Shown in pieces: positions 4,187 to 36,254 of a stretch of 64,000 bases of DNA. Each line of letters begins with the position of its first letter. The stretch's first letter is position 1. Origin of the DNA: Candidatus Saccharimonadota bacterium (GTDB taxonomy: Bacteria > Patescibacteriota > Saccharimonadia > Saccharimonadales > JAGQMS01); NCBI GenBank assembly GCA_020428535.1, contig JAGQMS010000002.1:3210-67209 (forward strand), read 5' to 3'. The notes beneath the pieces were generated by a model. It ran no database searches. It was not told the origin of the DNA and saw only the letters and a list, made by a program, of their open reading frames with translations. Both the position numbers and the translations under genes were made by a program.

Positions 4187-4187
4187 A

Positions 4188-4439: not shown

Positions 4440-4536
4440 GGATACTCCTATTATATGGTAGAGGCCCAGCACTTGAAATCAGGTGCTGGGCCAGCGGTGA
4501 TTGAAGGCTCAACCGCTTAAAGCCTGTATGGATATG

Positions 4537-5217: not shown

Positions 5218-5538
5218 CGATCCCTCCTTCCATATTGTTAATTCTCGATAGCGATTCGCCATCGGTGCGCTTCGGATGTTCCGAAGCAAGATCAGCTCCC
5301 GAAAAGTGTTATTTTGAAGGTTCTAAGTTCTGGAAAATATAGAAGCTCCCTTTTAGGGAGCTTATCTTGGTTCAAAAATGTGTTTTTATTAGAAACGAGA
5401 TAAGCTCTGGAATTTTTCGACATCAACAATTCCGCCAAACATGGTGGCTGAAGTTGAAAGCTTATATTTTCCAGAACTAAATTGGTTCATGTGCTATACT
5501 TTAGCACAAAATATAATTAAGTCAATAGCAAAAGCATT

Positions 5539-6147
5539 ATGATGTCTCAACAGTCAGCTATAAAGGCTTTAAAATGCCATGCAGAAAACAATCTAAAGTA
5601 TGATGTACCTTCTGAAAGTACGGTTAGGGCTATTTTATCTAGGCCCTTTGGAAGCGTTAGACAGATCGAAGATATAGTTGAAGCTGATCAAGCAATATAT
5701 TGTTCTGCTACTGACGGTCCTAAAACTAGGCGACGAGTGCTACTTGATGTTGTGATAAATCACCCTGAGATCGTATTTGATTTTGAGGGATCATGTTTCA
5801 CAGTTATAGAAGACGAAGCTCTTGGCGAAGAACTCGGTGGTATTGATTCGATGGTAGCTTTGGCTGTGCTTAAAGGCGGGGCAAAAGCTTGGCTAACGAT
5901 TGTAAATTACTACATGTATTCTGGGGATAATGATGCACCTGTAATTGCTACTTACGCCGGCAAAAAGATCCTTGGACCAGCAATGATGATTGCTGCTCGG
6001 CCTGCTAATAAATTCAGACCAGAAAATTCAGGATCAAAGTTTTTTCCTGATGCTCCTGCAAATAAATTAGTATGGACTGACTTCCGCAAGGGGAAGCAAA
6101 GACTTTTAGAAGTTGCTGGGGTTGATGCCGATGAATTGCAAGGGTAG
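5539..6147 (+). CDS. hypothetical protein
   Basis: 202-aa ORF with ordinary composition and no recognisable motif. Confidence 0.5.
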   Translation: MMSQQSAIKALKCHAENNLKYDVPSESTVRAILSRPFGSVRQIEDIVEADQAIYCSATDGPKTRRRVLLDVVINHPEIVFDFEGSCFTVIEDEALGEELGGIDSMVALAVLKGGAKAWLTIVNYYMYSGDNDAPVIATYAGKKILGPAMMIAARPANKFRPENSGSKFFPDAPANKLVWTDFRKGKQRLLEVAGVDADELQG

Positions 6148-10315: not shown

Positions 10316-10711
10316 ATGTTGTCAACGGCACCGATATGGTCTCCAAAATCTCCTGAACAAGGAGCTCGTATTTCTGTGATGAGTAGGCATACATTACCCG
10401 ATGGCGTTACCCCAGATCCTTCAATAACATCAGATATGTTTGATGAACGGGCTTTAGATCTGGCGCCACCACCTAAATTAATAGGTTCATATTACCGTGG
10501 CGAGATCATGTGGGGAGAATTTGAAAATCTTTTTAAGGAATATCTAGGGGCTGGACCCGGCCGATTAGCGGCTCTACGAATCGGCGAGAGAGCCATGTCC
10601 GCTAATATAACGCTTCTTTGTATAGAACGATCGTGTGTTTGTTGTCATAGACGATTAGTTGCCGAACATTGCAAAACGTTGTTCCCTACCTTAGAAGTTT
10701 CTATTGGTTAG
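10316..10711 (+). CDS. DUF488 family protein
   Basis: Inner ATG of ORF 10151..10711; the upstream part of that ORF overlaps the tRNA. DUF488-like layout: ISVMSRH..., LAPPPKLIGSY, ITLLCIERSCVCCHRRLVAEH. TAGAAT lies 7 nt before the ATG. Confidence 0.6.
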   Translation: MLSTAPIWSPKSPEQGARISVMSRHTLPDGVTPDPSITSDMFDERALDLAPPPKLIGSYYRGEIMWGEFENLFKEYLGAGPGRLAALRIGERAMSANITLLCIERSCVCCHRRLVAEHCKTLFPTLEVSIG

Positions 10712-23250: not shown

Positions 23251-23790
23251 TCAAAGTGCGGCTTCGATTGCAGCCCATTCGGCATCGACTTCGTCCGCAG
23301 GTACGTTGATGCTAATCTGATCACCTGGTTTTGCTTTGAAATATGTCACGCTTGCAAGCAGAACACGGTAATCACGTTTACCAACCTCGACAAAATAGTG
23401 GCCTTCACGTTGAACAAGTTGGCCAACTAACTGCTTGCGTGGTATTGGGCCAATTTGCTTGTACATAAATGCCCCGTCATCGGCGATAGTAAGTTTCAAA
23501 ATGTCACCTTGAACTAGCTTCGATTTTGAAGCGTAGTTAGCAGGAACTGGGTATGTTTTACCGTCGCTACCAACCATATTTTGGCCATCGAAGACACCTT
23601 CAATAATTTTTCCAGTAGACTCTTCTCTTACACTTGCAGTTAGATCGGCATCCTCGCCAACCATACTTACTAAGAGTTCTTTTGCCGCAGCCAAAGATGT
23701 TTCAGCTTCCTGAATAAGGCTTCTCAGCCTTTTTACCTGTTTTTCTGGTATTTCAGACATTTGTTTCTCGCAGTTCTGGGGGTCTCGCAT
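23251..23790 (-). CDS. hypothetical protein (N-terminal coiled coil plus beta-rich domain)
   Basis: 179-aa ORF; an alternative start is at 23760 (MSEIPEK). No recognisable motif. Confidence 0.45.
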   Translation of the reverse strand: MRDPQNCEKQMSEIPEKQVKRLRSLIQEAETSLAAAKELLVSMVGEDADLTASVREESTGKIIEGVFDGQNMVGSDGKTYPVPANYASKSKLVQGDILKLTIADDGAFMYKQIGPIPRKQLVGQLVQREGHYFVEVGKRDYRVLLASVTYFKAKPGDQISINVPADEVDAEWAAIEAAL

Positions 23791-23886: not shown

Positions 23887-24444
23887 CTAATCTCTAGTGG
23901 CTACCATCATATATCCCACACCTCTTACGGTTCTTATGAGCTGCATCACTTCATCTTCGCTAACGCTATTACCACACAGAGCTTTTCTGAGATTCCTTAT
24001 ATGTACATCTAGGGTTTTGGAATCTCCGTTATCGATAATGTAATTATCGCCCCATACGTGGTCCAGTAGTTGTCTACGTAGCAGCACTCTATTGCAATTC
24101 TCGGCAAGATAGGCTAGAAGATTAAATACTTTCTTCGGTAGGGTCAGCGTAACATCATGGAAAAATACCTTTCTAGATGCAGAATCGACTAATAGCTTAC
24201 CTCCGTTAAAGCTATGGGTTTCGTGCCCATGGGCATGAGTCTCTACCAGGGGTAAGTGTACAACTGTATCATCCGTGGGATTGGGCCCCGTTGCTCTAAT
24301 TAAGGAGCCGTAGGTAAATGCAATAGTCGGAACATTGTCTCCATCGGGTGTAGTAATCTGCGATTCAAATATTTGGTCAAGTGGACGAGGGTCTCTTTCT
24401 GCACCGGGCAACTGGACATATACTGCACTTTGTCTTTTTGGCAT
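23887..24444 (-). CDS. OmpR/PhoB-type winged-helix DNA-binding protein without a receiver domain
   Basis: The C-terminal region matches the Trans_reg_C pattern: LTLPKKVFNLLAYLAENCNRVLLRRQLLDHVWG...TLDVHIRNLRKAL...IRTVRGVGYMM. The N-terminal ~90 aa have no Asp-pocket motifs. ATG at 24444; the track start at 24480 is a TTG. Confidence 0.6.
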   Translation of the reverse strand: MPKRQSAVYVQLPGAERDPRPLDQIFESQITTPDGDNVPTIAFTYGSLIRATGPNPTDDTVVHLPLVETHAHGHETHSFNGGKLLVDSASRKVFFHDVTLTLPKKVFNLLAYLAENCNRVLLRRQLLDHVWGDNYIIDNGDSKTLDVHIRNLRKALCGNSVSEDEVMQLIRTVRGVGYMMVATRD

Positions 24445-24544
24445 ACGAAGAATGTTAATCTTTGTGTACTTAAAAAGCAAGCATTAGAACAAACAAAAAC
24501 AGGAGATATTACACTCCTGTCTTAGGGATGAACTACCTTCGTGA

Positions 24545-24934
24545 TTATGCTAGTTCAACAGTAGCACCTGCTTCTTCCAAAGCTTTTTTCATAGCTTCTG
24601 CGTCAGCTTTTGCTACCTTTTCTTTAACTGTGCCTGGAGCACCGTCAACGATAGCCTTTGCTTCACCAAGACCTAGACCTGTTGCATCTTTAACTGCCTT
24701 GATAACAGCAACTTTTTGAGCGCCAGCGTCTTTTAGAACTACATCGTATTCAGCTTTTTCTGCTGCTGCTTCACCTGCTGCTTCACCGCCAGCGACTGGA
24801 CCAGCTGCAACTGCAACTGCTGCTGCAGCTGGTTCGATGCCGTATTCGTCTTTTAGAATTGTTGATAGTTCATTAACTTCTAGTACGCTCAAAGAAACTA
24901 GTTCCTCGGCGATTTTCTTAAGATCTTTAGCCAT
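24545..24934 (-). CDS. rplL: 50S ribosomal protein L7/L12
   Basis: Ala-rich hinge followed by [25 protein letters not shown]...[25 protein letters not shown]. Confidence 0.95.
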
Positions 24935-24954
24935 TTAAATTCTCCGATATTAAA

Positions 24955-25479
24955 TTAATTTGTTGCCTTTGCGGCGATAGCGTCCATCAGACCAAGTAGG
25001 TTTCCCTTTAGTTGACCTGTAACGGTACGCATTGGTGATTGAAGTGTGTTGATCACACCTGCAATAAGTTGTTGCTTACTTGGTAGGCTTGCAAGAGCTT
25101 TGATCTGATCGGCGCTCATAAATTCACCAGTGGCAGTGATACCACCGACAAACTTGATGGCGTCTTCTTTCTTAGCAAATGCCGCCAATACTTGAGCACC
25201 AGCAGTCTCGTCATTTGAGTTAAAGACGTACATGAGCATGTCTTTGAGCTCGCTTGTGTCGGTTCCTTTGATAGAATCGACATTTTCAATAGCTTTTCGC
25301 ACTAGTCGGTTTTTGACGACCTTTATAACGCTACCGTTCTCACGTGCGTTACCACGAAGTTCCTGCATGCTTTTTACAGACATACCCTGGTACTTCGCTA
25401 CTACTGTAAGCTTTGAATCAGCGAATAGACTCTCTAGCTGAGCTACTACTTCTGCTTTTTTATCCTTTGATAGAGCCAT
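24955..25479 (-). CDS. rplJ: 50S ribosomal protein L10
   Basis: MALSKDKKAEVV start at 25479 is preceded by GAAAGGA. It sits directly upstream of rplL and has an L10-like sequence. Confidence 0.9.
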   Translation of the reverse strand: MALSKDKKAEVVAQLESLFADSKLTVVAKYQGMSVKSMQELRGNARENGSVIKVVKNRLVRKAIENVDSIKGTDTSELKDMLMYVFNSNDETAGAQVLAAFAKKEDAIKFVGGITATGEFMSADQIKALASLPSKQQLIAGVINTLQSPMRTVTGQLKGNLLGLMDAIAAKATN

Positions 25480-25660
25480 GTCTAAATATGGTCCTTTCGT
25501 AGTTATTTGACACCACATATCGACCTATTACCGCGGTGTTTGATTACCTCTAGTTGTTCTAATTAAGAGAACTCCTCGGTGGCACTATTAAGCGATTTCT
25601 CGCAGCCACTGTCTTTGGGTAACCTAGGTATTTTACTAAAACAGGGGTAAAAAATCAACT

Positions 25661-25975
25661 CTAATCTGTATATGGAATTTGCGGATCTTGAGTAAGATGA
25701 CTAGCGTGAAATTGAATTCGCGCAGATTCTGTAGCCGGGTCATGGATAAGCACCGGGAGGGGCGCTAGCTCCCCCGCCACTACTCTTTCTCTGTATACAC
25801 CTAATTGCCACTCAAATACTTCGCCTAATCTATCAATATGCCTTTGGTGAACAGGTTTTTGTAATTCAGCTACTGAACAACTGAATGGTAGAGATACACC
25901 TCGGCACTCTTGCCCGTCAAGATATCGTTCGTAACTTTTGAATATTTCTAATGGTCCTCTTTCTAAAAATGCCAT
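25661..25975 (-). CDS. hypothetical protein
   Basis: 104-aa ORF, somewhat GC-richer than average, with no recognisable motif. Confidence 0.4.
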   Translation of the reverse strand: MAFLERGPLEIFKSYERYLDGQECRGVSLPFSCSVAELQKPVHQRHIDRLGEVFEWQLGVYRERVVAGELAPLPVLIHDPATESARIQFHASHLTQDPQIPYTD

Positions 25976-26175
25976 ATAAACTCCTTTAAAATTAAAAAAC
26001 TTCCCCTAAATTTTGCGGGAAGTCTTTGTTGGCTCTTATTGTTGTTGGTTACGACTTCAGATAATCAGCAACAAGAGCATTATCAATAATGACTAGATTC
26101 TTGTTTGTGATCAATCTGATCTGCATATTAGCTAAAGTTTAACATATCACCAGAGATTATTGTTAGAATATACAC

Positions 26176-26844
26176 ATGAATAATACTAATTCTTGGCATA
26201 AAATAACTGGCGCCGATAAAGATGAGATGTTAGACCGAATTATCCATGAAAATATTCGCTTAGCAAAAAAAGTAGCCGATATGCAGAGGGTTATTAAGGA
26301 ATACAAATCTCATGCCGAGCATCACAAGAAACGCGCCGAAACGGATCAACTTACTGGTGTTGGGAGCAGACATTCTCTGGACACCTGGGAAGAGATTCAT
26401 TATGAACCCAAAAAGAATACATACATTGCTATTTGTTTTGATCTTGTAAAGTTCAAGTATGTGAATGACACTTTCGGGCACGATATCGGGGATAAAGTCT
26501 TAACAATTTTTGCGATTAAGCTTCTGGAAACGTTTCGTTTTAATATGAGAGAGGATTGTGCAGGCAAATTCTTTGCGCCTGATAATCTCTTTGTTAGACA
26601 GGGTGGTGACGAGTTCGCCGTTATACTAACTTTGGATCCAAAAATAAGCAAAGTAGATTTTTTGAAGATTATAGATGAGAGAATAAATTCAAACTTAATC
26701 GTAAATTTTGAAGATATGGGTATGGGTGAAGAAATTCGCCATCATTTCATGGACGTTCGATGTCGATACAGTTATGCTTTTAGTGAGCCTCGCATAGATC
26801 TTGAAACTCTCCTTCAAAAGGCTGATAGTAAAAATAAGTCTTGA
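26176..26844 (+). CDS. GGDEF-domain diguanylate cyclase with a short coiled-coil N-terminus
   Basis: DQLTGVGSRHSL, FDLVKFKYVNDTFGHDIGDKVL and an intact RQGGDEFAV active-site motif. There is no sensor or EAL/HD-GYP domain. TAGAAT lies 6 nt before the ATG. Confidence 0.8.
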   Translation: MNNTNSWHKITGADKDEMLDRIIHENIRLAKKVADMQRVIKEYKSHAEHHKKRAETDQLTGVGSRHSLDTWEEIHYEPKKNTYIAICFDLVKFKYVNDTFGHDIGDKVLTIFAIKLLETFRFNMREDCAGKFFAPDNLFVRQGGDEFAVILTLDPKISKVDFLKIIDERINSNLIVNFEDMGMGEEIRHHFMDVRCRYSYAFSEPRIDLETLLQKADSKNKS

Positions 26845-26965
26845 CTAAAGTGTCTTGGCTGTAGTAAAAAAGACGTAATGACAAAAAACAGCATTATTTT
26901 GAGCCTCGTGCTCCTCGCCCAGTAGCGAGTGTTGTTGTCATAAAAAAATCTAGCAGAATTAGGCA

Positions 26966-27001
26966 ACCGGACACTCGCTATAAGCAACAGTCCGGTTTTT
27001 T
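26966..27001 (+). terminator. rho-independent terminator downstream of the GGDEF gene
   Basis: Stem ACCGGAC / GTCCGGT followed by a T run. An upstream 10-nt segment, TAGCGAGTGT (26923-26932), is complementary to ACACTCGCTA (26971-26980) inside the loop. Confidence 0.6.
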
Positions 27002-27029
27002 GAACCTTTACAAATTGCTTTGCTCAATC

Positions 27030-27257
27030 ATGCGCCCGAAGAAGTGGCTTCGGACGCAGGTGAGAGCAAAGGGGAATGACGTGCGAAGTGCAGATGATGC
27101 ATTGGATGATGCGAAGGTGGCGGCAGATCATGGAGATGCTGATTCTGCCTTGGCGTTCGTACGGGAAGCAACTGAGAATGCCGGTGGGCGGTTGTCCTCA
27201 AGGCTTCAAAAGCTTGCCGATGAAATTTGTTCACGAATTCGATTCAGCCATTCGTGA
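27030..27257 (+). CDS. possible small helical protein in a GC-rich patch
   Basis: ATG-started 75-aa frame (MRPKKWLRTQ...DDALDDAKVAADHGDADSALAFVREATENAGG). Other frames are open here too because of the high GC, so coding is uncertain. Confidence 0.25.
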   Translation: MRPKKWLRTQVRAKGNDVRSADDALDDAKVAADHGDADSALAFVREATENAGGRLSSRLQKLADEICSRIRFSHS

Positions 27258-27498
27258 ACGTTGCATGAAATTCCAAGAAAGATTGCGGTTGGTGCGCGTA
27301 ACATGCGCCCTGACAATTTGCTATACGGTCTAACCCGTGGCAAATGCAAATGCGAGACTGATGAGGCAAAACATGCCAATACTCAGAAGCTAAAAGCTTC
27401 GGACTGCCCGAAGTAGCTTTTTTGGAAAAACCTTATTTGCTCTAAAGGGTTGAGCGTGTGAAGGCGAAGAACCTCCACGCTCCCCTTCTCAACCAAAA

Positions 27499-27717
27499 TT
27501 ATTTTGATTTTCTAGATGCTAACCAGTGCATGATAACTGCACCACTGACCCAATACGGCACAATGCCAATTAGGGTGTCGCTCACCGAATGACTATTTCT
27601 ATCAACTGCCAAAAAAGTTATCACCAACCAATAAAGATAAGGTAAATAAAGTAACCATCCCTGCCAAGAACAAGGAAGATAACTTCCCCGCACTTTCTTG
27701 AACCAGTATCGTTGCAT
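27499..27717 (-). CDS. small membrane protein
   Basis: Inner ATG at 27717 has TATAAT 10 nt upstream. Two hydrophobic helices. The longer track ORF would overlap thyX. Confidence 0.4.
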   Translation of the reverse strand: MQRYWFKKVRGSYLPCSWQGWLLYLPYLYWLVITFLAVDRNSHSVSDTLIGIVPYWVSGAVIMHWLASRKSK

Positions 27718-27766
27718 TATATTTATGATTATATACGTTTTAGTTATCGTAGTGGGTGAAAGTTTA

Positions 27767-29344
27767 TTATTGTAAACCGCTCTCTCTTGCTTTACGGGCA
27801 TTTCTCAACGCTTCTTGAAGACGAGCCAGATCTGGATTTTCACCATGATCAACGTGCACCATACCCTCGGCAATTGTTGGGTGTACCTGGCCCAATTGGC
27901 GATGCATCTCATTTACTACTTTCCGGTACCCTGGATGACCTTGGCTAGAAGTACGAAGTTCATGTATATGGTATGCTTCTCGTGCATTAATGGTCATCAT
28001 CCACCTCATATTATGCCCTAGCAGCGTTCCGTATTGGGCAACCGTAGTGCCGTACCTTTGCTTCAAGTGTTCATATAGTCCAGATGAAATATCGAAAGCT
28101 TCATTGAATAGATGAGCGACACCAGACTGAATCGCTAATTCTGGGATTTCTACATGACCATGATACGGAGTCAATTTCTGCCAGCGTAGATCATCAACCA
28201 TCCTATGCCTCTGTAGATCTCTGAAGATACCATAATCAGTGACGTATTCCCAGGTGTAGTGAGGGTGCTCAAAGGCTCTTCCTGGTTTATGGCGTCTGTT
28301 ATGCCGGTCCCCGATGTAGTCTTTAAGGATACTTCTAATCTCAGCATCGCTACGTTGTGACAAAATTTTTTCTATACCATCAAGCGAGATATCTGACGCG
28401 TCAAATAATACATATTTAACTACTTCAAGCTCATCTTTCGGAGTAAAGTCGTACAACTTCACGTTATCCCTGGTAACAGGTTCGCCATTTATACCTAATT
28501 CAGTTGCCCATTCTGACATTCTCTGTCGCTGGTCTAGTAGATAAGCAGACGCCATATTTCCCCTATCTGGCAAGTCTACTCTTCGCATATAATCTGGAGC
28601 AATCACCCGTGCATGTTGCAACATTAAGTTTCCGACCAGACGTGCTTCACGTAAATCACTCGCTCTCAATCTTAGAAGTAAATTCTCAAAAGATTGTGCG
28701 CTACCAACTATACCAACCGTAGCTTTGACCGATACTGGCAGTAATACACGAGCGGCATCACATGCCTGCGCTCTTAGTGTGCTAATCCATTCGCCTGGCT
28801 TGAGTTCAGGAGACTTTTCTAGAATCTCACCTAAGTAATCTTGCATGGCCCGGACCGCCTGTGAATATCTTACAAATATTTCTTCAGTCTGAGTTTCAAA
28901 GAACCTAGTATCTTCGTCGCCTAATTCAACTGGTGTGTAAAATGGGAATTTCCCATTTTCGTCCCGTCTATCAAATACTAGATAACGCGTGGATTGTTCA
29001 AGATATGACCCTAGTCTCCCCCATTCTAATATTTTTGTTAGTAAATTGGATGCTCCTTCAACTACTCCTTGCATTGTATATAATTGTGCTACCGAATCAT
29101 CTCCATATTTAAAAAAGATGTTTTGTCGAACTACAGAAGGATCTTTTCCATCATCCTGCAAAAACTCCTTACCCATTATTAACCTTAAATCATTCGGGCT
29201 ACGAGATAAACGAGCCATAGCTGTTGCTACCATTAACGGATCTGCCCCTGCCGTTGCAAAGTAGACCGGTTCATCCAACGAAGTAAACTGCCTGTCTAGT
29301 TCTGCTAATATTGCAGGATCTAGCTCTGATAATGATGCGCTCAT
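27767..29344 (-). CDS. thyX: tandem-domain ThyX-like flavin-dependent thymidylate synthase
   Basis: 525 aa, roughly twice a canonical ThyX. The N-terminal half keeps LEQSTRY (S-x-R-Y part of the ThyX motif) and the C-terminal half keeps FRDLQRHRMV (RHR part). It lies next to tmk and dcd. Confidence 0.6.
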   Translation of the reverse strand: MSASLSELDPAILAELDRQFTSLDEPVYFATAGADPLMVATAMARLSRSPNDLRLIMGKEFLQDDGKDPSVVRQNIFFKYGDDSVAQLYTMQGVVEGASNLLTKILEWGRLGSYLEQSTRYLVFDRRDENGKFPFYTPVELGDEDTRFFETQTEEIFVRYSQAVRAMQDYLGEILEKSPELKPGEWISTLRAQACDAARVLLPVSVKATVGIVGSAQSFENLLLRLRASDLREARLVGNLMLQHARVIAPDYMRRVDLPDRGNMASAYLLDQRQRMSEWATELGINGEPVTRDNVKLYDFTPKDELEVVKYVLFDASDISLDGIEKILSQRSDAEIRSILKDYIGDRHNRRHKPGRAFEHPHYTWEYVTDYGIFRDLQRHRMVDDLRWQKLTPYHGHVEIPELAIQSGVAHLFNEAFDISSGLYEHLKQRYGTTVAQYGTLLGHNMRWMMTINAREAYHIHELRTSSQGHPGYRKVVNEMHRQLGQVHPTIAEGMVHVDHGENPDLARLQEALRNARKARESGLQ

Positions 29345-29355
29345 TTGTTCCTCCT

Positions 29356-29985
29356 TTATATTCCTAATCTATCTCTACACAGTCGTCTTATTTGAAAATA
29401 AACATTATCTGGGCTGGCATTACCATCAACTAATACCCCAATGTCATGGTATGTATCTAATAAATAGTCATAACCTTTGTCAACTAGATCATGGAACTCG
29501 TCCCCTGCCTGCTCGAATCTATCAAGCTCACGCCCTGTCATACGCTTTCTAGCTTCTTCTTTTGTAACTCTAATTACCACAACCAAGTCTGGCATGTATA
29601 ACTCACCAGTTGCCATCCGGGTGAGCCGGTACATGTTGCCGATATCCTGTTCCCTACCAAAACCTTGGTATGCTACAAAACTCCACCAATTTCGATCAGA
29701 TACTAGATCTCTTCCCGAATATAGTGTAGGCGCTACGACTTCAAAAATATGCTGTGCGCGATCTGCAGATACAAGCATAGCTTCGGCCATAGGATCTAGG
29801 TTAGTTACTGAATTGTCGTGCAGGATCTCCCTTATTCGTCTGCCAATGTCGGTACCGCCAGTCTCTCTTGTTAGGCAAGCCCCTAAAGCTTCAGCAAGCC
29901 TTCTTGCTTGAGCAGATTTCCCAGCGCCCTCACCACCCTCAATTACGATGTATTTCCCTCTTTGTATCTCAACCTCAGATGCCAT
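29356..29985 (-). CDS. tmk: thymidylate (dTMP) kinase
   Basis: P-loop IVIEGGEGAGKSAQ, DRNWWSFVAYQG and a lid region. Length is 209 aa. Confidence 0.8.
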   Translation of the reverse strand: MASEVEIQRGKYIVIEGGEGAGKSAQARRLAEALGACLTRETGGTDIGRRIREILHDNSVTNLDPMAEAMLVSADRAQHIFEVVAPTLYSGRDLVSDRNWWSFVAYQGFGREQDIGNMYRLTRMATGELYMPDLVVVIRVTKEEARKRMTGRELDRFEQAGDEFHDLVDKGYDYLLDTYHDIGVLVDGNASPDNVYFQIRRLCRDRLGI

Positions 29986-30672
29986 CTAAATAGCCCTCGG
30001 AAGTTGACGTTTGTCTTTGTAGCTTCTCGGGAGCATGTCCTCAGGGCGCCAATGTTTTATTAGTTCAACCAAATCTGATGAAGACTGGTATTTTCCACTT
30101 AATTTTGAGTAATCTTCCTCGACTTCGCCAGTATGAAAAAATACTAACTGTGCAACACGTTCTCCAACTGGTAGCACGACGCTATGTTTAGTATTTAAAT
30201 TATAGATCTCCATAGTCCAGCGATTTATATAGCCTGGATCGCCCCAACCGGCGTCAAAACATACTGCAATCCCGTTCCGTCCCGTTGAACTGCGGGCTTG
30301 CATTGAAGTTGTCCCAGGACCTTTAATACCGATAAATTCGTGCGTATGGGCCAAGATTCGCTCACCAGGTGCCAGTACAATTATTGGGTGATCATCTGGA
30401 ATATTTGAAAGTAATCTGAAGCCATGTTTTTCGCACCATTGCTTATGTGGCGTAGCTTGCTGTGGATCACCAAAATAATGGTGTACGGCATGTTCGTCAT
30501 ACGGGTTGTAGATTGTAGAACCTGTTTTTCTGTCCGTACGATAAAACCATTCACCCAATGTGACGTCAATACTCGAGCCATTTATATGTTCTGGAGTGTA
30601 GGGATGAAAAACTATATGGCCATTTTTGATGGCATCGTATATCTGCAGATTGCTATATACGCCTGTATCCAT
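29986..30672 (-). CDS. dcd: dCTP deaminase / dUTPase-superfamily protein
   Basis: Start MDTGVYSNLQIYDAIKNGHIVFHPY at 30672. GSSIDVTLG, ARSSTGRNGI, GWGDPGY and VAQLVFF fit the dCTP deaminase pattern. Its stop abuts the tmk start. Confidence 0.65.
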   Translation of the reverse strand: MDTGVYSNLQIYDAIKNGHIVFHPYTPEHINGSSIDVTLGEWFYRTDRKTGSTIYNPYDEHAVHHYFGDPQQATPHKQWCEKHGFRLLSNIPDDHPIIVLAPGERILAHTHEFIGIKGPGTTSMQARSSTGRNGIAVCFDAGWGDPGYINRWTMEIYNLNTKHSVVLPVGERVAQLVFFHTGEVEEDYSKLSGKYQSSSDLVELIKHWRPEDMLPRSYKDKRQLPRAI

Positions 30673-30753
30673 TGCCCTCTCCTGTTCAACTAATGTTAAA
30701 CAATCCTTTGATGAGTAGCAATACATTACTTTTGTAGTATTGGCAACGTTGTA

Positions 30754-31299
30754 TTAAATAACTATATTATTGAAATGTATTTGTAGTTTCTTTTCTGATA
30801 AAGAATCAATCTTAGAAGCTTCAAAATAGCTAATATGTTTACCGAGATTCAGGTAGTTGGCGATACGCATTACCTCCTCAATACATGGGTATGGGTAGAC
30901 CCAGAGGCTTCGTTGCATCATATGCAGACCAAGCTTGTGCAAGCGACGGTTGAAAAATAATCTCTCTTTGTCCTTACCTTTCGGGAAGTCAAAACAAACA
31001 AAATGCCAGGAATCGTCCCATTTTTTATTATGTTGTAGCTTAATTTCATCTACTTCAGCTTTTAGAAGCCTCATAGCCCCAGCCGGCGTAAGGGTGAAAA
31101 CGTATAATTTTTCTGATTTTTTCTTAGAGCTAATCAGTTTTTGCCTGTAAAGCTCATTGTATATTTTTTTAGCTTGCTCTTCTTCAAGGTTTGTCGCACT
31201 GGCAAATGCCGAGGATTTTGTGTGGCCATTTGAAGTAATACCATCAAAGCCCTCAGTGCCTATAGTTTTTAGCGCGTTTATCAGTGCAGTTTTATTCAT
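30754..31299 (-). CDS. PaaX-like protein (winged helix plus PaaX_C/Cas2-like C-terminal fold)
   Basis: WDDSWHFVCFDFPKGKDKERLFFNRRLHKLGLHMMQRSLWVYPYP resembles the PaaX C-terminal pattern. This is motif-level evidence only. Confidence 0.35.
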   Translation of the reverse strand: MNKTALINALKTIGTEGFDGITSNGHTKSSAFASATNLEEEQAKKIYNELYRQKLISSKKKSEKLYVFTLTPAGAMRLLKAEVDEIKLQHNKKWDDSWHFVCFDFPKGKDKERLFFNRRLHKLGLHMMQRSLWVYPYPCIEEVMRIANYLNLGKHISYFEASKIDSLSEKKLQIHFNNIVI

Positions 31300-31392
31300 T
31301 ATCAAAATATTATCAACAATAACGTACAAATGAAATAATAATGTATAAAAAATCTTGACTAACAGTAGTAATTAATGTAAAATATCGATTCC

Positions 31393-31824
31393 ATGAAGAG
31401 GCTTGAAGTAGATAGACATAATCCGTTAGTTTTGCCACCGGCATATTATATGAATGCTGAGTCTGTTTCAGCTCTTTACCCTCTCGTCAACGTAGGAAAA
31501 ATTGCTTTAATTGAATTTGTGCTTACAGCTGGTGGGCTGCCTAGGTATTGTGTCATCGCAAATACACCTGGAGATATCGAATTACCAGAGATTATTGGAG
31601 CAGAGTGGGAAATTATTGACCCTGCAAAAATTGGTAGTGAAAAATTATTGGATATTGCAACTCATGGTCACAGAGTAGCCGGTACTTCGGCATACCTTAC
31701 TTCACTAATCCTGCGCGTTGAACAGATGGAAACAGCCGCCAACGAGTTCATTGAAGGATTAGACGGATACTTGGAACCGGGACTAAGTACAAATGTAGAA
31801 GCCACTGAGCTTGTGTTGGAATAG
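31393..31824 (+). CDS. hypothetical protein
   Basis: 143-aa ORF with no recognisable motif. Confidence 0.4.
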   Translation: MKRLEVDRHNPLVLPPAYYMNAESVSALYPLVNVGKIALIEFVLTAGGLPRYCVIANTPGDIELPEIIGAEWEIIDPAKIGSEKLLDIATHGHRVAGTSAYLTSLILRVEQMETAANEFIEGLDGYLEPGLSTNVEATELVLE

Positions 31825-31964
31825 TTATCCACAAAAACAGACACTATCTTAATTTAGCCTCTTTGTACTTCCGGGCTCGTTTAGTATAAAAATCTTGGAT
31901 ATAGTAACTTATTCATCAAGTCTGGTTTTAGATATTATTCCTAAATAAATCTAAGAAGCCATAA

Positions 31965-32465
31965 TCAAATACTAACCCCGAAATGTTGCAATAATCTCAG
32001 TGAGGCTGCAGTTGACCTGTGCGGAACCCTTTGTTGTTCATCGCGCATTAATTGGTATGCTGATTTTGGAGAATCGGTGCGGACAAAGCTGGGGTCTCTT
32101 TTGATAGCCTCGGGTTGAGCGTCACATTCAATAGTTGTCGCTAAATAAAGCCTAGGTGGATTATTGTGGCTAGTTAATACCGTGGCTAAGTCATGAACAG
32201 TAGCTACGCAAGATGTTGCATACGAATCTACGAATCTATCAATACAGTCCCGCACTTCCTCCGGGTACTCTACTTTGATATGAGGTAGTGCTAGCGCATC
32301 TTTATGGAGTGTACGTCTCAACACCAGTCCGCCACCACATCGAAAAAATGCAATTGCATTAACCGCATATTCTTTTGGTATCGGCAGTGTCAAATCGTAC
32401 GCCCTAAAGGGTGGTACACCTTCATAGGATACTGGCGGATGTTTGTGTCGTTTTCTTGCGGGCAT
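31965..32465 (-). CDS. hypothetical protein (possibly a degenerate Nudix-like fold)
   Basis: 166-aa ORF, GC-richer than average. AIAFFRCGGGLVLRR...LALPHIKVEYPEEVRDCIDRFV loosely resembles a Nudix core but lacks the full box. Confidence 0.35.
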   Translation of the reverse strand: MPARKRHKHPPVSYEGVPPFRAYDLTLPIPKEYAVNAIAFFRCGGGLVLRRTLHKDALALPHIKVEYPEEVRDCIDRFVDSYATSCVATVHDLATVLTSHNNPPRLYLATTIECDAQPEAIKRDPSFVRTDSPKSAYQLMRDEQQRVPHRSTAASLRLLQHFGVSI

Positions 32466-32493
32466 ATAAGTTCTTAACCCACCACTGAATGTT

Positions 32494-33480
32494 TTATAGT
32501 TCGCTGATAGCTACTCGGACGCTAGGGCCCATTGTTGTAGTAAGGAAGATACCTTTCACGTAGTTGCTCTTTACCGATGCAGGCTTAGCGGCCTTGATTG
32601 AGGCAAACACTGCATTAACGTTTTCGACTAGTTTGTCTGTGCCGAAAGAAACTTTACCGACACCAAGGTGAACGATTCCTGCGCTGTCCACGCGGTATTC
32701 AACACGACCAGCTTTTGCTTGCGCAACTGCTTTTTCGACATCGTTTGTTACTGTCCCGCTCTTTGGGTTAGGCATCAGACCCTTTGGCCCAAGGAGGCGA
32801 GCGTATTTACCGAGTTTTGCCATATTCGAAGGAGTTGCAACCAAAATATCGAAATTGATAATCTCTTTTTCAAGTTGTTGCAAGAAGTCGTCTGCTCCGA
32901 CAACGTCTGCACCTGCTTTTTTTGCTGAAGCATGTAGGTCAGCATCAGCGAAAACCGCAACTCGAACCGTTCGGCCTGTGCCGTTTGGTAATACTAAGTT
33001 GTCGCGGATATTCTGATCAGCGTGTTTTGGGTCTACTGCTAGATTTACGTGCAATTCAACTGTCGAGTCGAACTTTGTGGTTGAAGTTTTAGCAACGACG
33101 TCCAGTGCTTCTGCTAGAGAGTATTCTTTAGTCTTGTCGACAAGTGTTGATGCTTCACGGAGTTTCTTGCCAGCTCGCTCTAGGCGTGTTCTAGCTTTTT
33201 TTACAGGGGCCTTTGGCTTTTCGGATTCTTCTTCTGTGCTAGCTTTTCTCTCTTCTTTTGCTACTTCTGCTTCTTTTTCTGCAATTGCCTTAGCACTTCT
33301 TTTACCTGATTTTGCAACTTTAGCTACATGCTCTTCTGTTGGAAGTGCTTCTTTGTCGTGCTTCTTAGGAGCAACTGAAGAAATAGCTTCACGAAGTTCT
33401 GCCATTGTGTTCTTAGTGCTAAGATGCTCGATACCGAGTTCTTTAGCTTTTTTGATTAGATCTGCTTTGGTCTCTGCCAT
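32494..33480 (-). CDS. rplA: 50S ribosomal protein L1 with a ~100-aa N-terminal extension
   Basis: The canonical L1 core starts near KEYSLAEALDVV..KFDSTVELHVNLAVDPKHADQNIR...GLMPNPKSGTVT. ATG at 33480 is preceded by AAAGGA. The N-terminal extension is Lys/Glu/Ala-rich. Confidence 0.9.
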   Translation of the reverse strand: MAETKADLIKKAKELGIEHLSTKNTMAELREAISSVAPKKHDKEALPTEEHVAKVAKSGKRSAKAIAEKEAEVAKEERKASTEEESEKPKAPVKKARTRLERAGKKLREASTLVDKTKEYSLAEALDVVAKTSTTKFDSTVELHVNLAVDPKHADQNIRDNLVLPNGTGRTVRVAVFADADLHASAKKAGADVVGADDFLQQLEKEIINFDILVATPSNMAKLGKYARLLGPKGLMPNPKSGTVTNDVEKAVAQAKAGRVEYRVDSAGIVHLGVGKVSFGTDKLVENVNAVFASIKAAKPASVKSNYVKGIFLTTTMGPSVRVAISEL

Positions 33481-33532
33481 TGTTTTATCCTTTCGTGGTT
33501 CTGACGGCTTTTCACAGCCTCCCACTAATTAA

Positions 33533-33940
33533 TTATTTTGTTGGGCTACTATTTACTACATCAAGTACTCGGGTTAACTCAGAGTCATATCTTCCGTTGG
33601 ATGCTTCTGATGTTTGAGCTGCTACACCCCGAAGCATGTTTATACCAAGTACTCTCACAGAACTAGCGCCGCTTTTTAGGCCAACCGCATCCATTCTCTG
33701 CGCAAGTAACATTATTGCATGCTCTGCTAGCCTAACTCCTTCAGCAAGATGAGATAGCAATTCTAATCTCATATCGGGTGGTAATTCTCCGATTCTTTCG
33801 ATGAAGTCAGTCCAATCTACCCTGCTCACACTTGCGTCTATTTCACCTGGTGCTACTCTTTCGGCACCTTCGATATGGCTACCGCGTTTTCGCCTTCCTT
33901 CCGGCCATGTGCCAGGCAAATATGTTGCAGGAAGTGGCAT
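33533..33940 (-). CDS. hypothetical protein wedged between rplK and rplA
   Basis: 135-aa ORF whose ATG is 2 nt after the rplK stop. It ends 52 nt before the rplA ATG. GC-richer than the ribosomal genes, with no recognisable motif. Confidence 0.45.
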   Translation of the reverse strand: MPLPATYLPGTWPEGRRKRGSHIEGAERVAPGEIDASVSRVDWTDFIERIGELPPDMRLELLSHLAEGVRLAEHAIMLLAQRMDAVGLKSGASSVRVLGINMLRGVAAQTSEASNGRYDSELTRVLDVVNSSPTK

Positions 33941-33942
33941 CT

Positions 33943-34377
33943 TTACTTCTCGACCTCTACACCCATTGAACGGGCTGTGCCAGCAACTATTTTCTTGACT
34001 GCTTCTACATCGTGGGCATTCATGTCTTTCATCTTGCCTTCAGCAATTTGAGTCAATTGAGCCTGAGAAAGTTTTTTGCTAACTTTTTCAGTATTTGGTC
34101 GCCCTGAACCTTTTTCGATGCCAAGCACACGGCGAATTGCGTCGTCAGTAGGCTCACCAACTACACGAAAGTCCATTGTGCGGTCTTCGTAGATATTGAT
34201 GTGTGCTGTGACCGTTACTCCGCCCATGTCGCGAGTTGCCTCGTTGAAAGGGTTGATGAAATCCATCATGTTTACACCGTACTGACCAAGTGTGCTACCT
34301 ACTGGAGGAGCTGCACTAGCCTGGCCGGCTTTGATTTTCATTTTTAGTCTTGCTTTTACTGGCTTTGCATCTGCCAT
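33943..34377 (-). CDS. rplK: 50S ribosomal protein L11
   Basis: KAGQASAAPPVGSTLGQYGVNMMDFINPFN is the L11 N-terminal signature. Length is 144 aa. Confidence 0.95.
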   Translation of the reverse strand: MADAKPVKARLKMKIKAGQASAAPPVGSTLGQYGVNMMDFINPFNEATRDMGGVTVTAHINIYEDRTMDFRVVGEPTDDAIRRVLGIEKGSGRPNTEKVSKKLSQAQLTQIAEGKMKDMNAHDVEAVKKIVAGTARSMGVEVEK

Positions 34378-34660
34378 CTTGCTGTCCTTTCACGAGCGAA
34401 CCGAATCTCTTGCCACCTAGCTTTGTCTACTGACTCATCGCATTCTCTCACCGTACATTAGTACGGCTCGGTCATTCGACGCGCCAATATTCGCGCTATC
34501 TAACAAGATCTTCTAGTTCTTAACAGTGGTAAATTATTTCCACTGTAAACCCTGCTGGTTGTTAATTACGATTTAAATGGTGATGGGAAGTTCACAATCT
34601 TTCCATCTTGCTAATTCTGTTAGTTGATGTGAAGCACTAACAGAGTGCGTAACATATTAA

Positions 34661-34891
34661 TTATACCAGATTATCCCTGTTATTGTCTAGGTTTTCTTTT
34701 GCTTGCGGCGTGCTTGTTGATGCGACGCTCAGAACCATGCTTGTCAAAAATACTAGCCCTCCTTTTATAGGGCTACCAGTTTCTGTCAGAGCTGCTCCAA
34801 TAATTTCCCCGATTATACTCGCATGAAATGCAAGTCGTTCATAACCGGGCAATCTTGAGGTGAATTTTGAGTATCTAGTATAGAGTTCCAT
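34661..34891 (-). CDS. small hypothetical membrane protein
   Basis: 76-aa ORF with two hydrophobic segments, lying between nusG and rplK. Confidence 0.35.
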   Translation of the reverse strand: MELYTRYSKFTSRLPGYERLAFHASIIGEIIGAALTETGSPIKGGLVFLTSMVLSVASTSTPQAKENLDNNRDNLV

Positions 34892-34897
34892 GTAGAG

Positions 34898-35284
34898 CTA
34901 TATAATAAGTTCGAGCCCGGCTCGGTATGCTTTGACTCCCCGGCTTGCTGCTTTCAAAACACTTCTGTGAAAAGGATCACTTACTGGGTCAAATACTTCA
35001 GGTGCAGTTGAGCGTCTAAGCTCGTGTATAAGCACCGGAACACTGGGGTCTGTTGAAACAGAAATTGTTCCTTCTAAAAGCGATCCTACATACGGAATTG
35101 TAAATCCACCTGGATGCATTAATATATCTGGTTTACCTAAAACAGGAATCTCAACTTCTCCACTCCTAAGTTTGTGTGCTTCGGCTAAAACAGCATGGTT
35201 CGTTCTTAAGGTTTCAAGAATTCTTTCTGCTCTTGATGTCGTAGAAAAGTACTTTCCTATTCGTATAGCCGTATTTGACTTCAT
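34898..35284 (-). CDS. hypothetical protein between nusG and rplK
   Basis: 128-aa ORF that starts 14 nt downstream of the nusG stop, with no recognisable motif. Confidence 0.4.
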   Translation of the reverse strand: MKSNTAIRIGKYFSTTSRAERILETLRTNHAVLAEAHKLRSGEVEIPVLGKPDILMHPGGFTIPYVGSLLEGTISVSTDPSVPVLIHELRRSTAPEVFDPVSDPFHRSVLKAASRGVKAYRAGLELII

Positions 35285-35298
35285 ATATACTCCTAAAA

Positions 35299-35841
35299 TT
35301 ATACTTTTTTAACTTGAAGACCGTCGAGTTCAACTGGAGTTTCTCGGCCGAACATGTTGACCAAGACTTTTAGTTTGCCTTTAAGTGGGTCAACCTCTGA
35401 AATTGCGCCATCAAAGCCTTTGAATGGACCATCAACGATTGAGACAACATCACCAGTTTTGTATTCAAACTTGTGTTTTGGATCTTTCTTGCCCATGCGT
35501 TTCATGATTTTTTCCATTTCATCAGAAGCGATCGGTGTTGGCTCTGTGCCACTACCAACAAAGCCGGTGACATTTGGTGTATTTCGGACGATGTACCACG
35601 CATCTTCAGACAATTTCATCTGCACCATGACATAGCCTTGGAAGATTTTTTTCTCAACAACGCGTCTTTTACCATTCTTGATTTCAATTTGCTTTTCTTT
35701 CGGTACGACAACTTGGAAAATTTTATCTGCCATATCAAGGCTTTCAGCTCGTTGGCGGATGCTTTCTGCGACCTTTTCTTCGTAGCCACTATATGTGTGT
35801 ATTGCGTACCATTGTTTTGATGAATCGTATCTCTTTGTCAT
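35299..35841 (-). CDS. nusG: transcription termination/antitermination factor NusG
   Basis: WYAIHTYSGYEEKV NGN start and KOW motif GDVVSIVDGPFKGFDGAISEVD. Length is 180 aa. Confidence 0.93.
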   Translation of the reverse strand: MTKRYDSSKQWYAIHTYSGYEEKVAESIRQRAESLDMADKIFQVVVPKEKQIEIKNGKRRVVEKKIFQGYVMVQMKLSEDAWYIVRNTPNVTGFVGSGTEPTPIASDEMEKIMKRMGKKDPKHKFEYKTGDVVSIVDGPFKGFDGAISEVDPLKGKLKVLVNMFGRETPVELDGLQVKKV

Positions 35842-35849
35842 ATCTCTTC

Positions 35850-36254
35850 CTACTTTAAAATTACATCTCTAAATAACTTTTCAAAACCAAAGTCCAAGCC
35901 TTTTACAATTGCAGCGAGTACAAATGAGAAAATAAAGACCGCTAAGGTTAGTTTTGCGGTGGTCTTTTTATCTGGCCAGGTAACATTTTTTAACTCTCTA
36001 AAGGACTCAACGAAATACATAGGGGTGAATCTACGAGACTTGCCTAAGAATTGCCCGGCCTTTGAATCACCAGTTTTAAATGGTGTGTATTCTTTTGAGA
36101 GAATGCCGGAAACTTTGCCTTTCGTTTTTGAAGCAGTATCCGCTAACTTTCTAATTCTTGGAGTTTTATCTTTTTTTGCAGAAGACTTTACTGCTTTTTC
36201 GCGAACTGTTTCGCGCTTTCTTTTTACGACCAACTTCTTCTTTGACTCAGCCAT
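35850..36254 (-). CDS. secE: preprotein translocase subunit SecE with a Lys-rich N-terminal extension
   Basis: C-terminal FFVESFRELKNVTWPDKKTTAKLTLAVFIFSFVLAAIVKGLD is the SecE TM signature. It sits directly upstream of nusG. Confidence 0.85.
   Translation of the reverse strand: MAESKKKLVVKRKRETVREKAVKSSAKKDKTPRIRKLADTASKTKGKVSGILSKEYTPFKTGDSKAGQFLGKSRRFTPMYFVESFRELKNVTWPDKKTTAKLTLAVFIFSFVLAAIVKGLDFGFEKLFRDVILK

Follow-up and report, generated by a model that had tools for sequence, protein, structure and literature searches.

How did some 7 kb of other genes come to lie between the ribosomal protein genes rplA (L1) and rplJ (L10) of a Saccharibacteria genome, and is the gap recent or inherited? 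The locus lies on a stretch of 64,000 nucleotides (nt), hereafter the window, from Candidatus Saccharimonadota bacterium (GenBank assembly GCA_020428535.1, contig JAGQMS010000002.1, positions 3,210 to 67,209 of the forward strand), with secE, nusG, rplK, rplA, rplJ and rplL on the minus strand between 24.5 and 36.3 kb. The original prediction took the material between rplA and rplJ for acquired cargo inside a core operon. Here, we report that the gap is very probably an inherited gene order of the Saccharibacteria (TM7, class Saccharimonadia) and not recently acquired cargo.

Loci and comparisons

Compared loci are labelled L001 to L109. The first relatives were taken from a scan with the L1 protein (one genome per GTDB species), of which the best matches were 11 Saccharimonadia loci with 53 to 64% L1 identity. 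Further loci were obtained from a metagenome scan with L10, and closer relatives (L102 to L109) from an L10 homology search combined with gene context; the sampling reaches down to an L10 identity of about 48%. As a control, we used 69 non-Saccharibacteria loci from the same L1 scan, 68 of which were informative. Codon usage was evaluated with a log-odds score trained on confident genes of the window, and tetranucleotide distances were calculated for 2-kb segments (strand-symmetric, against the profile of the whole window).

Gene order in relatives and controls

In the window, rplJ starts about 7.0 kb from the rplA stop, as the original prediction had stated. Every Saccharibacteria locus having both genes (16 of 16) has them apart, by 3.0 to 8.0 kb, and all but one of these loci (15 of 16) carry a gene for a thymidylate synthase or kinase inside the interval. 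By tblastn, rplJ directly follows rplA in none of the 11 Saccharimonadia loci. Four of these (L001, L003, L010, and L011) read rplA, dcd, (tmk), thyX, then rplJ-rplL-u179-dnaX, with intervals of 5.0 to 7.2 kb (u179 is an open reading frame [ORF] described below); L002 and L008 have dcd, tmk, and thyX after rplA as far as they are readable; and L004 to L007 and L009 have other genes 3' of rplA, including an opposite-strand gene resembling lysyl-phosphatidylglycerol synthase. In seven more loci other genes follow rplA, and in six further loci thyX or other genes precede rplJ. A compact form of about 3 kb is found in L088, L091, L093, and L096 (secE-nusG-rplK-rplA-dcd-tmk-thyX-rplJ-rplL-u179-dnaX).

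The closer relatives, with rplA-rplJ distances of 4.5 to 8.0 kb, show the same separation with varying content. L105 (L10 identity, 87%) reads rplK-rplA-PaaX_M-thioredoxin-DsbD-GGDEF-122-amino-acid (aa) ORF-rplJ, L104 (85%) reads rplA-Pup ligase-PaaX_M-thioredoxin-DsbD-DCD-Tmk-short ThyX-GGDEF-99-aa ORF-rplJ, and L102 (84%) reads rplK-rplA-PaaX_M-HTH-thioredoxin-DsbD-dihydrofolate reductase (DHFR)-dCMP deaminase-ThyA-GGDEF-99-aa ORF-rplJ, with the GGDEF gene on the opposite strand in all three. L103 and L106 (73% and 71%) carry PaaX_M-HTH-thioredoxin-DsbD/AhpC-(Tmk)-short ThyX. L107 (67%) has a separate Tmk, a 525-aa ThyX, and an opposite-strand GGDEF gene; L108 and L109 (67% and 65%) read rplA-(NUDIX, dUTPase)-DCD-Tmk::ThyX fusion-GGDEF (opposite strand)-rplJ-rplL-u179-thymidine kinase-dnaX.

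In the control, rplJ or rplL lies directly 3' of rplA in 62 of the 68 loci, among them L065 (the one labelled as another Patescibacteria bacterium), and the genes are also contiguous in the divergent metagenome loci L097 and L098. Three alphaproteobacterial control loci lack rplJ within 3 kb of rplA: L041 (3.0 kb), L079 (7.8 kb), and L046 (none within 10 kb). The block is thus interrupted relative to most bacteria, as had been proposed. Because the genes are separated in all 16 related loci and mostly adjacent in the control, the break is a trait of the Saccharibacteria lineage rather than of this genome.

The boundary between two ribosomal protein units

The break does not fall inside a core operon, as the original prediction had it. 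It sits at the boundary of the L11 (rplKA) and L10 (rplJL) units, each of which appears to have its own leader, and since it lies between two independently autoregulated operons, the split would cost the ribosomal genes nothing.

Upstream of rplJ lies a putative short form of the L10 leader (Rfam RF00557; Table 1). Seven relatives have the leader at the same place with 47.7 to 74.1 bits, above the gathering score, and its core, AGACAG...CCGAGG, does not vary among the window, L102, L103, and L104. The rplJ start, ATGGCTCT, is likewise conserved in relatives.

Upstream of rplK, the promoter-like site is the best match in the region (11/12) and is conserved in L102 and L103. The last codons of u76, a small ORF, overlap this promoter, its L-D-N codons holding the −35 hexamer. 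A u76 homologue occupies the same position in L103 (39% identity; E value, ~1e-13 to 1e-16), and the C-terminal LDNRGxL motif of u76 recurs in the ORFs that precede rplK in L005 and L010. Both u76 and u104, each ending just before a promoter, are fast-evolving, yet their C-terminal residues are kept.

Between this promoter and rplK lies a 134-nt hairpin that has a mean DNA identity of 75% with L102 (401-535) and L103 (968-1102) and 17 pairs with compensatory changes (RNAalifold). R1, a covariance model, recovers the element from the window and from both of these loci, along with a second, diverged copy in L103 just upstream of rplL (10557-10690; 72 bits; compensatory stem changes). No convincing copy was found with R1 in L001 to L011, L088 to L096, or L104 to L107, and the element has no Rfam match. 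It could be an undescribed ribosomal protein leader or a structured repeat.

Directly before rplA, a small hairpin resembling an L1 site was found in all 14 Saccharibacteria loci examined. In an alignment of 12 of these loci, pairing holds in 92.7% of cells, compared with 84% in shuffles, and the covariation score of 0.284 compares with 0.126; none of 500 shuffles attains either of the two observed values, and all slid controls score far lower. Three of the four pairs of the inner stem show double changes. An L1-interacting RNA "directly preceding rplA" has been described in several phyla (Fu et al. 2013, PMC3616713), and the hairpin, which is not represented among the Rfam matches here, agrees with that RNA in position and architecture. 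By this likeness, L1 may bind the hairpin. The hairpin also bears on the start of rplA: public gene calls place it at the ATG at 33480 (328 aa), and a 343-aa version with a GTG start was rejected, as that GTG is the first codon of the hairpin. The rplA product scores 303.8 bits with NCBIfam rplA_bact, an equivalog-level match, with the alignment beginning at residue 103. L1 has an N-terminal extension of ~100 aa, rich in K, E, and A, in every Saccharibacteria locus (307 to 355 aa in total against the typical ~230 aa); its residues 1 to 35 resemble a helix-extension-helix motif of SAP or Rho-N type, with no Pfam match.

The rplK|rplA junction measures only 53 to 56 nt in L102 and L103, and the window has ~410 nt more, holding the ORF u135. 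In this region, u135 is the sole true operon interruption. Its only match in an exhaustive HMMER search of 1.84 billion representatives was itself. Small ORFs (67 to 135 aa) occupy the place between the rplK stop and the pre-rplA hairpin in 7 of the 15 Saccharibacteria loci checked: besides the window, L001 (9561-9932), L003 (9598-9807), L005 (6244-6447), L009 (9252-9581), L010 (9538-9924), and L107 (783-1190). The junction ORFs of different lineages have no detectable similarity to each other; the 135-aa ORF of L107 was considered as a relative of u135 and rejected, as the two proved unrelated on comparison.

The dcd-tmk-thyX module

Three genes of the interval belong to one pathway. Taken by family, dcd, thyX, and tmk lead from dCTP through dUTP or dUMP to dTMP and dTDP, a thymidine-nucleotide route for an organism that salvages precursors. 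Scores lie above the curated cut-offs of Pfam (DCD, 113 bits, and Thymidylate_kin, 114 bits, with a cut-off of 27 each; Thy1, 117.6 bits against 24.8) and, at equivalog level, of NCBIfam dCTP_deam for dcd (94 bits; cut-off, 92.8). ThyX falls below the TIGR02170 equivalog cut-off (56 against 87.9), which is consistent with its atypical long form. The PaaX_M-like gene lies 81 nt from dcd, dcd and tmk abut, tmk and thyX are 11 nt apart, and thyX is 49 nt from a small membrane ORF; this tight spacing suggests a single unit from the paaX-like gene to the membrane ORF. The segment flanking the hairpin at its end is conserved in L104.

Across relatives, dcd lies downstream of rplA in most loci, and the thymidylate enzymes vary in type: dcd-tmk-thyX, a Tmk::ThyX fusion, a short ThyX, or ThyA with DHFR and dCMP deaminase. 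In the window, tmk and thyX are separate genes in different frames (27767-29985), and they are separate in L107 too; Tmk::ThyX fusions of 774 to 834 aa occur in L001, L003, L008 to L011, L108, and L109 (for example, L001 13009-15333, L011 11345-13675, and L108 5091-7433). The window ThyX is 66% identical to that of L107 and 41 to 50% identical to those of distant relatives. The window dcd shares 52% identity with the L104 gene and 65% with the gene of L001, a more distant locus. In neighbor-joining trees, the window dcd pairs with L001, and in the rplA tree L001 is the nearest outgroup of the window plus L104; the discordant long branch of the dcd tree is L104. That dcd groups with L001 as in the rplA tree fits vertical descent. 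Because the dcd and rplA trees agree and L107 carries a 66% identical long ThyX, the comparison suggests that the window keeps an older state of the module, some close relatives having replaced or lost it.

The best-surviving alternative accepts an ancestral split and proposes that the window obtained its dcd-tmk-thyX anew, by transfer from a different lineage of Saccharibacteria, in place of another thymidylate module. The relatives with 84 to 87% L10 identity carry other modules (L102 and L104) or none (L105), the window dcd is closer to that of distant L001 than to that of L104, and Patescibacteria are reported to have acquired thyA (PMC12455944), all of which would suit such a replacement. 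Against it, the outlier of the dcd tree is L104, with the window placed beside L001 as the rplA tree predicts; L107 has the same separate tmk and 525-aa thyX, so that L102 to L106 look derived; and the window bears no compositional trace. We regard this alternative as unlikely.

Composition, mobility signals, and assembly

Patches of different composition had been proposed for the interval and were not borne out. GC content across it is 0.37 to 0.46, fluctuating as in the rest of the window, and tetranucleotide distances at 25.5 to 32.5 kb lie between −1.1 and +0.9 standard deviations of the window mean. The only mildly deviant stretch within the 24.5- to 36.3-kb region is rplK plus rplA themselves (tetranucleotide z, +2.4). 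All interval ORFs, including those without assigned families, score best in their own frame by codon log-odds, with the usual GC1 > GC2 > GC3. No integrase, transposase, or recombinase domain was found among them with Pfam, and scans with PADLOC and PHROGs gave no defense-system or phage structural match; the only matches of that type were a weak Cas2-like one for the PaaX_M domain and GGDEF-containing PHROGs without an assigned function. A search for flanking repeats gave only short, low-identity pairs of chance quality, and the tRNAs of the window lie at 10.2 and 41.7 kb, none near the interval.

These results bear directly on the acquired cargo of the original prediction, that is, an accessory island that would have entered one of the core ribosomal operons only recently, in this genome. 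Mixed strands, ORFs without assigned families, interval contents that differ among close relatives, and the lack of homologues of u166, u143, and u135 anywhere searched would all be expected of such an island. Set against them are the split in 16 of 16 related loci down to ~48% L10 identity, native codon usage with no compositional deviation, mobility gene, or flanking repeat, the agreement of the dcd and rplA trees, the presence of PaaX-like, GGDEF, and u104 counterparts at the same positions in relatives, and a site between two operons that each appear to retain their own leader. A gene order shared among relatives with no compositional break had been named beforehand as the mark of an ancestral arrangement, and this is the pattern observed. 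A recent island is therefore very improbable.

Misassembly does not account for the arrangement. Entries for the exact RplL protein occur in 58 blocks of a public assembly collection, and 23 contigs carrying it were examined; L099, L100, and L101 (three different samples, two assembly pipelines) are 99.96 to 100% identical to and colinear with the window at 14545 to 34934, in matches spanning 13 to 20 kb that cover both junctions. An assembly chimera, in which rplKA and rplJL would truly be adjacent and the intervening DNA joined by misassembly, has no supporting point that we found and is already refuted by the agreement of these independent assemblies across both junctions and by the same gene order in other species, so we give it practically no chance.

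Points that weigh against an inherited arrangement

Several observations count against reading the whole interval as inherited. Four ORFs (u166, u143, u128, and u135) have no counterpart even in relatives with 84 to 87% L10 identity, which indicates that part of the interval is recent. L105, the closest sampled relative, has no thymidylate gene in its interval, the interval of L102 carries thyA, folA, and a dCMP deaminase gene instead, and the short ThyX of L103, L104, and L106 is not detectably similar to that of the window. Since interval content differs between relatives in this way, the module has been replaced in some lineages, probably through transfer among Saccharibacteria, and a small chance is left that the module of the window was itself reacquired from a relative of similar composition. 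The term ancestral to the class is itself an extrapolation from the sampled loci, of about 48% L10 identity and above, to basal Saccharibacteria and named cultured strains. On the regulatory side, the L10 leader of the window scores 40.5 bits (E value, 9e-4 over 13.5 kb), below the gathering score of 44 because the 60-nt variable hairpin is missing, and the promoter consensus scan, on which the transcription units below rest, is not enriched over shuffles (24 sites found, 27 expected).

Proposed history and transcription units

With these points weighed, an inherited Saccharibacteria gene order remains our preferred explanation. In an ancestor of the Saccharimonadia sampled here, the rplKA (L11) and rplJL (L10) operons would have been parted at their boundary, and a dcd-tmk-thyX pyrimidine-deoxynucleotide module, leading from dCTP to dTMP and dTDP, would have come to sit there. 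Afterwards, the interval may have served as a stable address with changing content, at which thymidylate function was nearly always kept while the enzymes were swapped between lineages, and accessory genes (the PaaX-like regulator, thioredoxin and DsbD, the opposite-strand GGDEF gene, and small ORFs) would have come and gone. The interval is a gene-turnover hotspot.

Seven transcription units are predicted for the present region: (1) secE-nusG-u128-u76; (2) rplK-u135-rplA-u166, which has a strong promoter, a 5' leader with RNA structure, and the L1-site-like hairpin before rplA; (3) u143, on the opposite strand; (4) paaX-like-dcd-tmk-thyX-membrane ORF, closed by a hairpin; (5) the plus-strand GGDEF gene, which has a separate terminator; (6) u104; and (7) rplJ-rplL, for which a promoter, a putative L10 leader, and a terminator are all present. 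A growth-rate coupling of dTTP synthesis to ribosomal protein expression is conceivable.

Gene layout and other genes of the region

Every gene named in the original prediction, from secE to the OmpR-like gene, was confirmed with Pfam (Table 1).

Table 1 Features of the region around rplA and rplJ, in minus-strand reading order (positions are those of the window)
Feature	Position	Strand	Description
secE	35850-36254	-	Pfam SecE (E=9.6e-16); 134 aa, long basic N-terminal extension
nusG	35299-35841	-	Pfam NusG (E=6.9e-30) and KOW
u128	34898-35284	-	ORF starting 14 nt past nusG
u76	34661-34891	-	Small hydrophobic protein, upstream of rplK
rplK promoter-like site	34660-34689	-	TAGACA, 18 nt, TG-extended TATAAT
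Long-hairpin RNA element	34391-34524	-	134 nt, in the rplK 5' leader; ends ~13 nt before the start codon
rplK (L11)	33943-34377	-	Pfam Ribosomal_L11_N and Ribosomal_L11
u135	33533-33940	-	ORF between the rplK stop (2-nt gap) and the pre-rplA hairpin
Putative L1-binding hairpin	33495-33525	-	GUGG-GAG-(variable stem)-G.....-CCAC; the Shine-Dalgarno sequence and ATG of rplA follow at once
rplA (L1)	32494-33480	-	328 aa; Pfam Ribosomal_L1 (E=1e-58)
u166	31965-32465	-	ORF, 28 nt 3' of rplA
u143	31393-31824	+	ORF on the opposite strand, convergent with u166
u143 promoter-like site	31355-31383	+	
PaaX_M-like gene	30754-31299	-	Pfam PaaX_M (E=3.2e-17); 181 aa
dcd	29986-30672	-	dCTP deaminase; Pfam DCD (E=1.7e-32)
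tmk	29356-29985	-	Thymidylate kinase; Pfam Thymidylate_kin (E=6.3e-33)
thyX	27767-29344	-	Flavin-dependent thymidylate synthase; 525 aa, two-repeat long form; Pfam Thy1 (E=7.3e-34, two matched stretches)
Small membrane ORF	27499-27717	-	72 aa in public gene calls; the 100-aa version of the ORF list is overextended
Terminator-like two-way hairpin	27396-27414	both	Ends the predicted thyX unit; terminator scan
GC-richer patch	~26.9-27.44 kb		
Possible 75-aa ORF	27030-27257	+	In the GC-richer patch; called in public assemblies; uncertain
GGDEF intrinsic terminator	26966-27002	+	ACCGGAC...GTCCGGT, then TTTTTT
GGDEF gene	26176-26844	+	222 aa; Pfam GGDEF (E=2.9e-14)
u104	25661-25975	-	Small protein ORF ending just before the rplJ promoter
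rplJL promoter-like site	25630-25658	-	−35 and −10 elements conserved in L102, L103, and L104
L10 leader (RF00557)	25556-25636	-	Putative short form, without the 60-nt variable hairpin
rplJ (L10)	24955-25479	-	174 aa; Pfam Ribosomal_L10
rplL (L7/L12)	24545-24934	-	Pfam Ribosomal_L12_N and Ribosomal_L12
Intrinsic terminator after rplL	24496-24523	-	10-bp stem, then T-rich tail
Trans_reg_C-only gene	23887-24444	-	OmpR/PhoB-type winged-helix DNA-binding protein, no receiver domain
u179	23251-23790	-	ORF after the Trans_reg_C-only gene

At the upstream end, secE is kept ahead of nusG in the 11 GTDB Saccharimonadia loci, and nusG is 78 to 84% identical to the copies of relatives. An ABC transporter (ATPase plus ABC-2 permease) lies directly upstream of the u76-rplK unit in L102 (1-231), L103 (1-578), and L106 (372-2236), where the window has nusG-u128, so the nusG|rplK junction is also variable.

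At the downstream end, rplL is followed by the terminator, the Trans_reg_C-only gene, u179, and dnaX. That rpoB and rpoC do not follow rplL, as had been noted, holds: no ORF of at least 700 aa exists anywhere in the 64-kb window, and rpoB/rpoC are not within 24 kb downstream. NCBIfam matches of the Trans_reg_C-only gene are restricted to the C-terminal DNA-binding part of response regulators, and L103 and L106 have such a gene at the same position 3' of rplL. The product of u179 (169 to 179 aa) is encoded directly after rplL or one gene on wherever the region is readable; it is 73 to 90% identical across Saccharibacteria, more conserved than L1 or L10, with no Pfam, NCBIfam, or PDB sequence match. 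In relatives, the wider neighborhood holds genes for thymidine kinase, dUTPase, NUDIX, dCMP deaminase, and DHFR, and then dnaX, dnaB, and recR, which hints that DNA-precursor supply, the ribosome stalk, and replication genes may be linked and the linkage kept by selection.

The PaaX_M-like protein has a winged-helix N terminus and a Cas2-like middle domain and lacks PaaX_C. A gene of this kind also directly follows rplA in L102 to L106 (29 to 37% identity). Identity as a true PaaX repressor (TIGR02277) was rejected, as the NCBIfam score is 22.7 bits against a cut-off of 264.6 and the PaaX_M domain alone matches; with a score so far below the cut-off, PaaX-like denotes a fold and not a function. 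As the first gene of its predicted unit, it could plausibly regulate paaX-like-dcd-tmk-thyX.

The GGDEF protein has an intact RQGGDEF motif, no sensor domain, and an NCBIfam GGDEF score of 60.3 bits against 37.4. An opposite-strand GGDEF gene upstream of rplJ also occurs in L102, L104, L105, L107, L108, and L109, and its terminator is conserved at the DNA level in L102, L103, and L104. A stand-alone GGDEF protein is a possible sign of cyclic di-GMP signaling in a very small genome.

The GC-richer patch folds with z scores of −2.9 and −3.9 on its two strands, and the codon score of its 75- to 85-aa ORF is weak and ambiguous. An RNA gene was considered and rejected, since Rfam at E values up to 5 is empty there; what is conserved with L102 to L104 at the DNA level is mainly two hairpins, that of the GGDEF terminator and a small one just past the stop of the GGDEF gene. 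The small membrane ORF also has a weak codon score, and no homologues of it were found in the relatives searched.

For u104, a weak homologue is present in L105 (33% identity; E=3e-7), and the ORFs at its position in L102, L103, and L104 share only its C-terminal P-[FY]-x-D, with synonymous third-position changes. The species-specific ORFs are only u166, u143, u128, and u135, all with native codon usage. A word-indexed search among 5.8 billion proteins returned only self-matches for u166 and u143; u166 has no family match in Pfam, PADLOC, or PHROGs, and u128 has none in these three and no tblastn or blastp match in any relative.

Elsewhere in the window, the strongest compositional outlier is at 50.5 to 54.4 kb (plus strand; GC, ~0.49; tetranucleotide z, up to +4.2), where a 392-aa ORF overlaps a gene for a Y-family DNA polymerase (IMS) and a VanY carboxypeptidase gene comes next; acquired DNA is more plausible for this stretch than for the rplA-rplJ interval. 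A milder outlier (z, ~+2.1; GC, ~0.51) lies at 3500 to 6000, around a GNAT acetyltransferase gene (4537-5289, minus strand).

Comparison with known systems

The region resembles the canonical secE-nusG-rplKAJL-rpoBC cluster (Escherichia coli, Vibrio, and Bacillus) in its genes, their order, and two autoregulated ribosomal protein operons. Both have an L10(L12)4 leader before rplJ, in the window a putative short form, and an L1-site-like hairpin, which in the window precedes rplA rather than rplK. In the canonical cluster, rplA and rplJ are adjacent and rpoBC follows rplL, whereas the window has the ~7-kb gap and then a winged-helix gene, u179, and dnaX; it also has extra small ORFs at the nusG|rplK and rplK|rplA junctions.

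Separation at this boundary is known elsewhere. In Mycobacterium tuberculosis, the mmaA genes occupy the space between rplA and rplJ. E. coli transcribes rplKA and rplJL-rpoBC as two units, each having a promoter and a feedback RNA to itself (bioRxiv 10.1101/2025.04.14.645983; PMC3616713), and rplKA and rplJL stand apart in Actinomyces israelii and Bradyrhizobium diazoefficiens (bioRxiv 10.1101/2025.04.14.645983). As in the window, the separations in Mycobacterium, Actinomyces, and Bradyrhizobium use the same inter-operon boundary, are filled with unrelated metabolic genes, and are stable within their lineage. Unlike them, the filler of Saccharibacteria has a recurring thymidylate/pyrimidine deoxynucleotide theme class-wide, with enzymes repeatedly replaced by nonorthologous ones.

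The pre-rplA hairpin has its counterpart in the L1-interacting RNA of Actinobacteria, Cyanobacteria, Chloroflexi, and Firmicutes (PMC3616713), also a small hairpin with an asymmetric internal loop directly 5' of the rplA Shine-Dalgarno sequence; the two share a conserved outer stem with a bulge and a covarying inner stem. In contrast to that RNA, the hairpin is separated from rplK by an unrelated small ORF in 7 of the 15 Saccharibacteria loci.

Nonorthologous displacement of ThyA and ThyX, and linkage of thyA to folA, have been described by Myllykallio and colleagues (discussed in PMC11974145 and PMC12455944), and transfer of thyA into Patescibacteria has been reported (PMC12455944). Related genomes with either ThyX or ThyA plus DHFR are the general pattern, also seen in the Saccharibacteria loci; unlike the general case, displacement in Saccharibacteria is repeated at one fixed address between ribosomal protein operons. 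Our search of a literature library found no paper on this rplA-rplJ arrangement in Saccharibacteria among the 8 best-ranked of 13 papers mentioning thymidylate, and none joining Saccharibacteria with thyX. The arrangement is a new lineage-level case of known gene-order variation, and its added feature is the recurring thymidylate theme.

Significance

The locus illustrates that a break in a textbook cluster needs checking against relatives before it is called an insertion. A broader picture can be offered tentatively, with a doubtful chance that all of its parts hold together. The rplA|rplJ interval would be a class-wide thymidylate address that ties dTTP supply physically and transcriptionally to rplKA ... 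rplJL-u179-(tdk)-dnaX-dnaB, its enzymes being replaced in place; the nusG|rplK and rplK|rplA junctions would be nurseries for small genes without known relatives (such as u135) that ride on very high expression; and the 134-nt hairpin would be an undescribed leader RNA. The small ORFs between rplK and rplA, which have no known relatives, and the leader hairpin would be cheap targets given a cultured TM7 strain. Saccharibacteria are reduced epibionts and depend on nucleotides that they salvage; the conserved position of thymidylate genes between their stalk operons provides a synteny marker for the group, and the interval shows how, in nature, ThyX and ThyA have replaced each other repeatedly at one locus.

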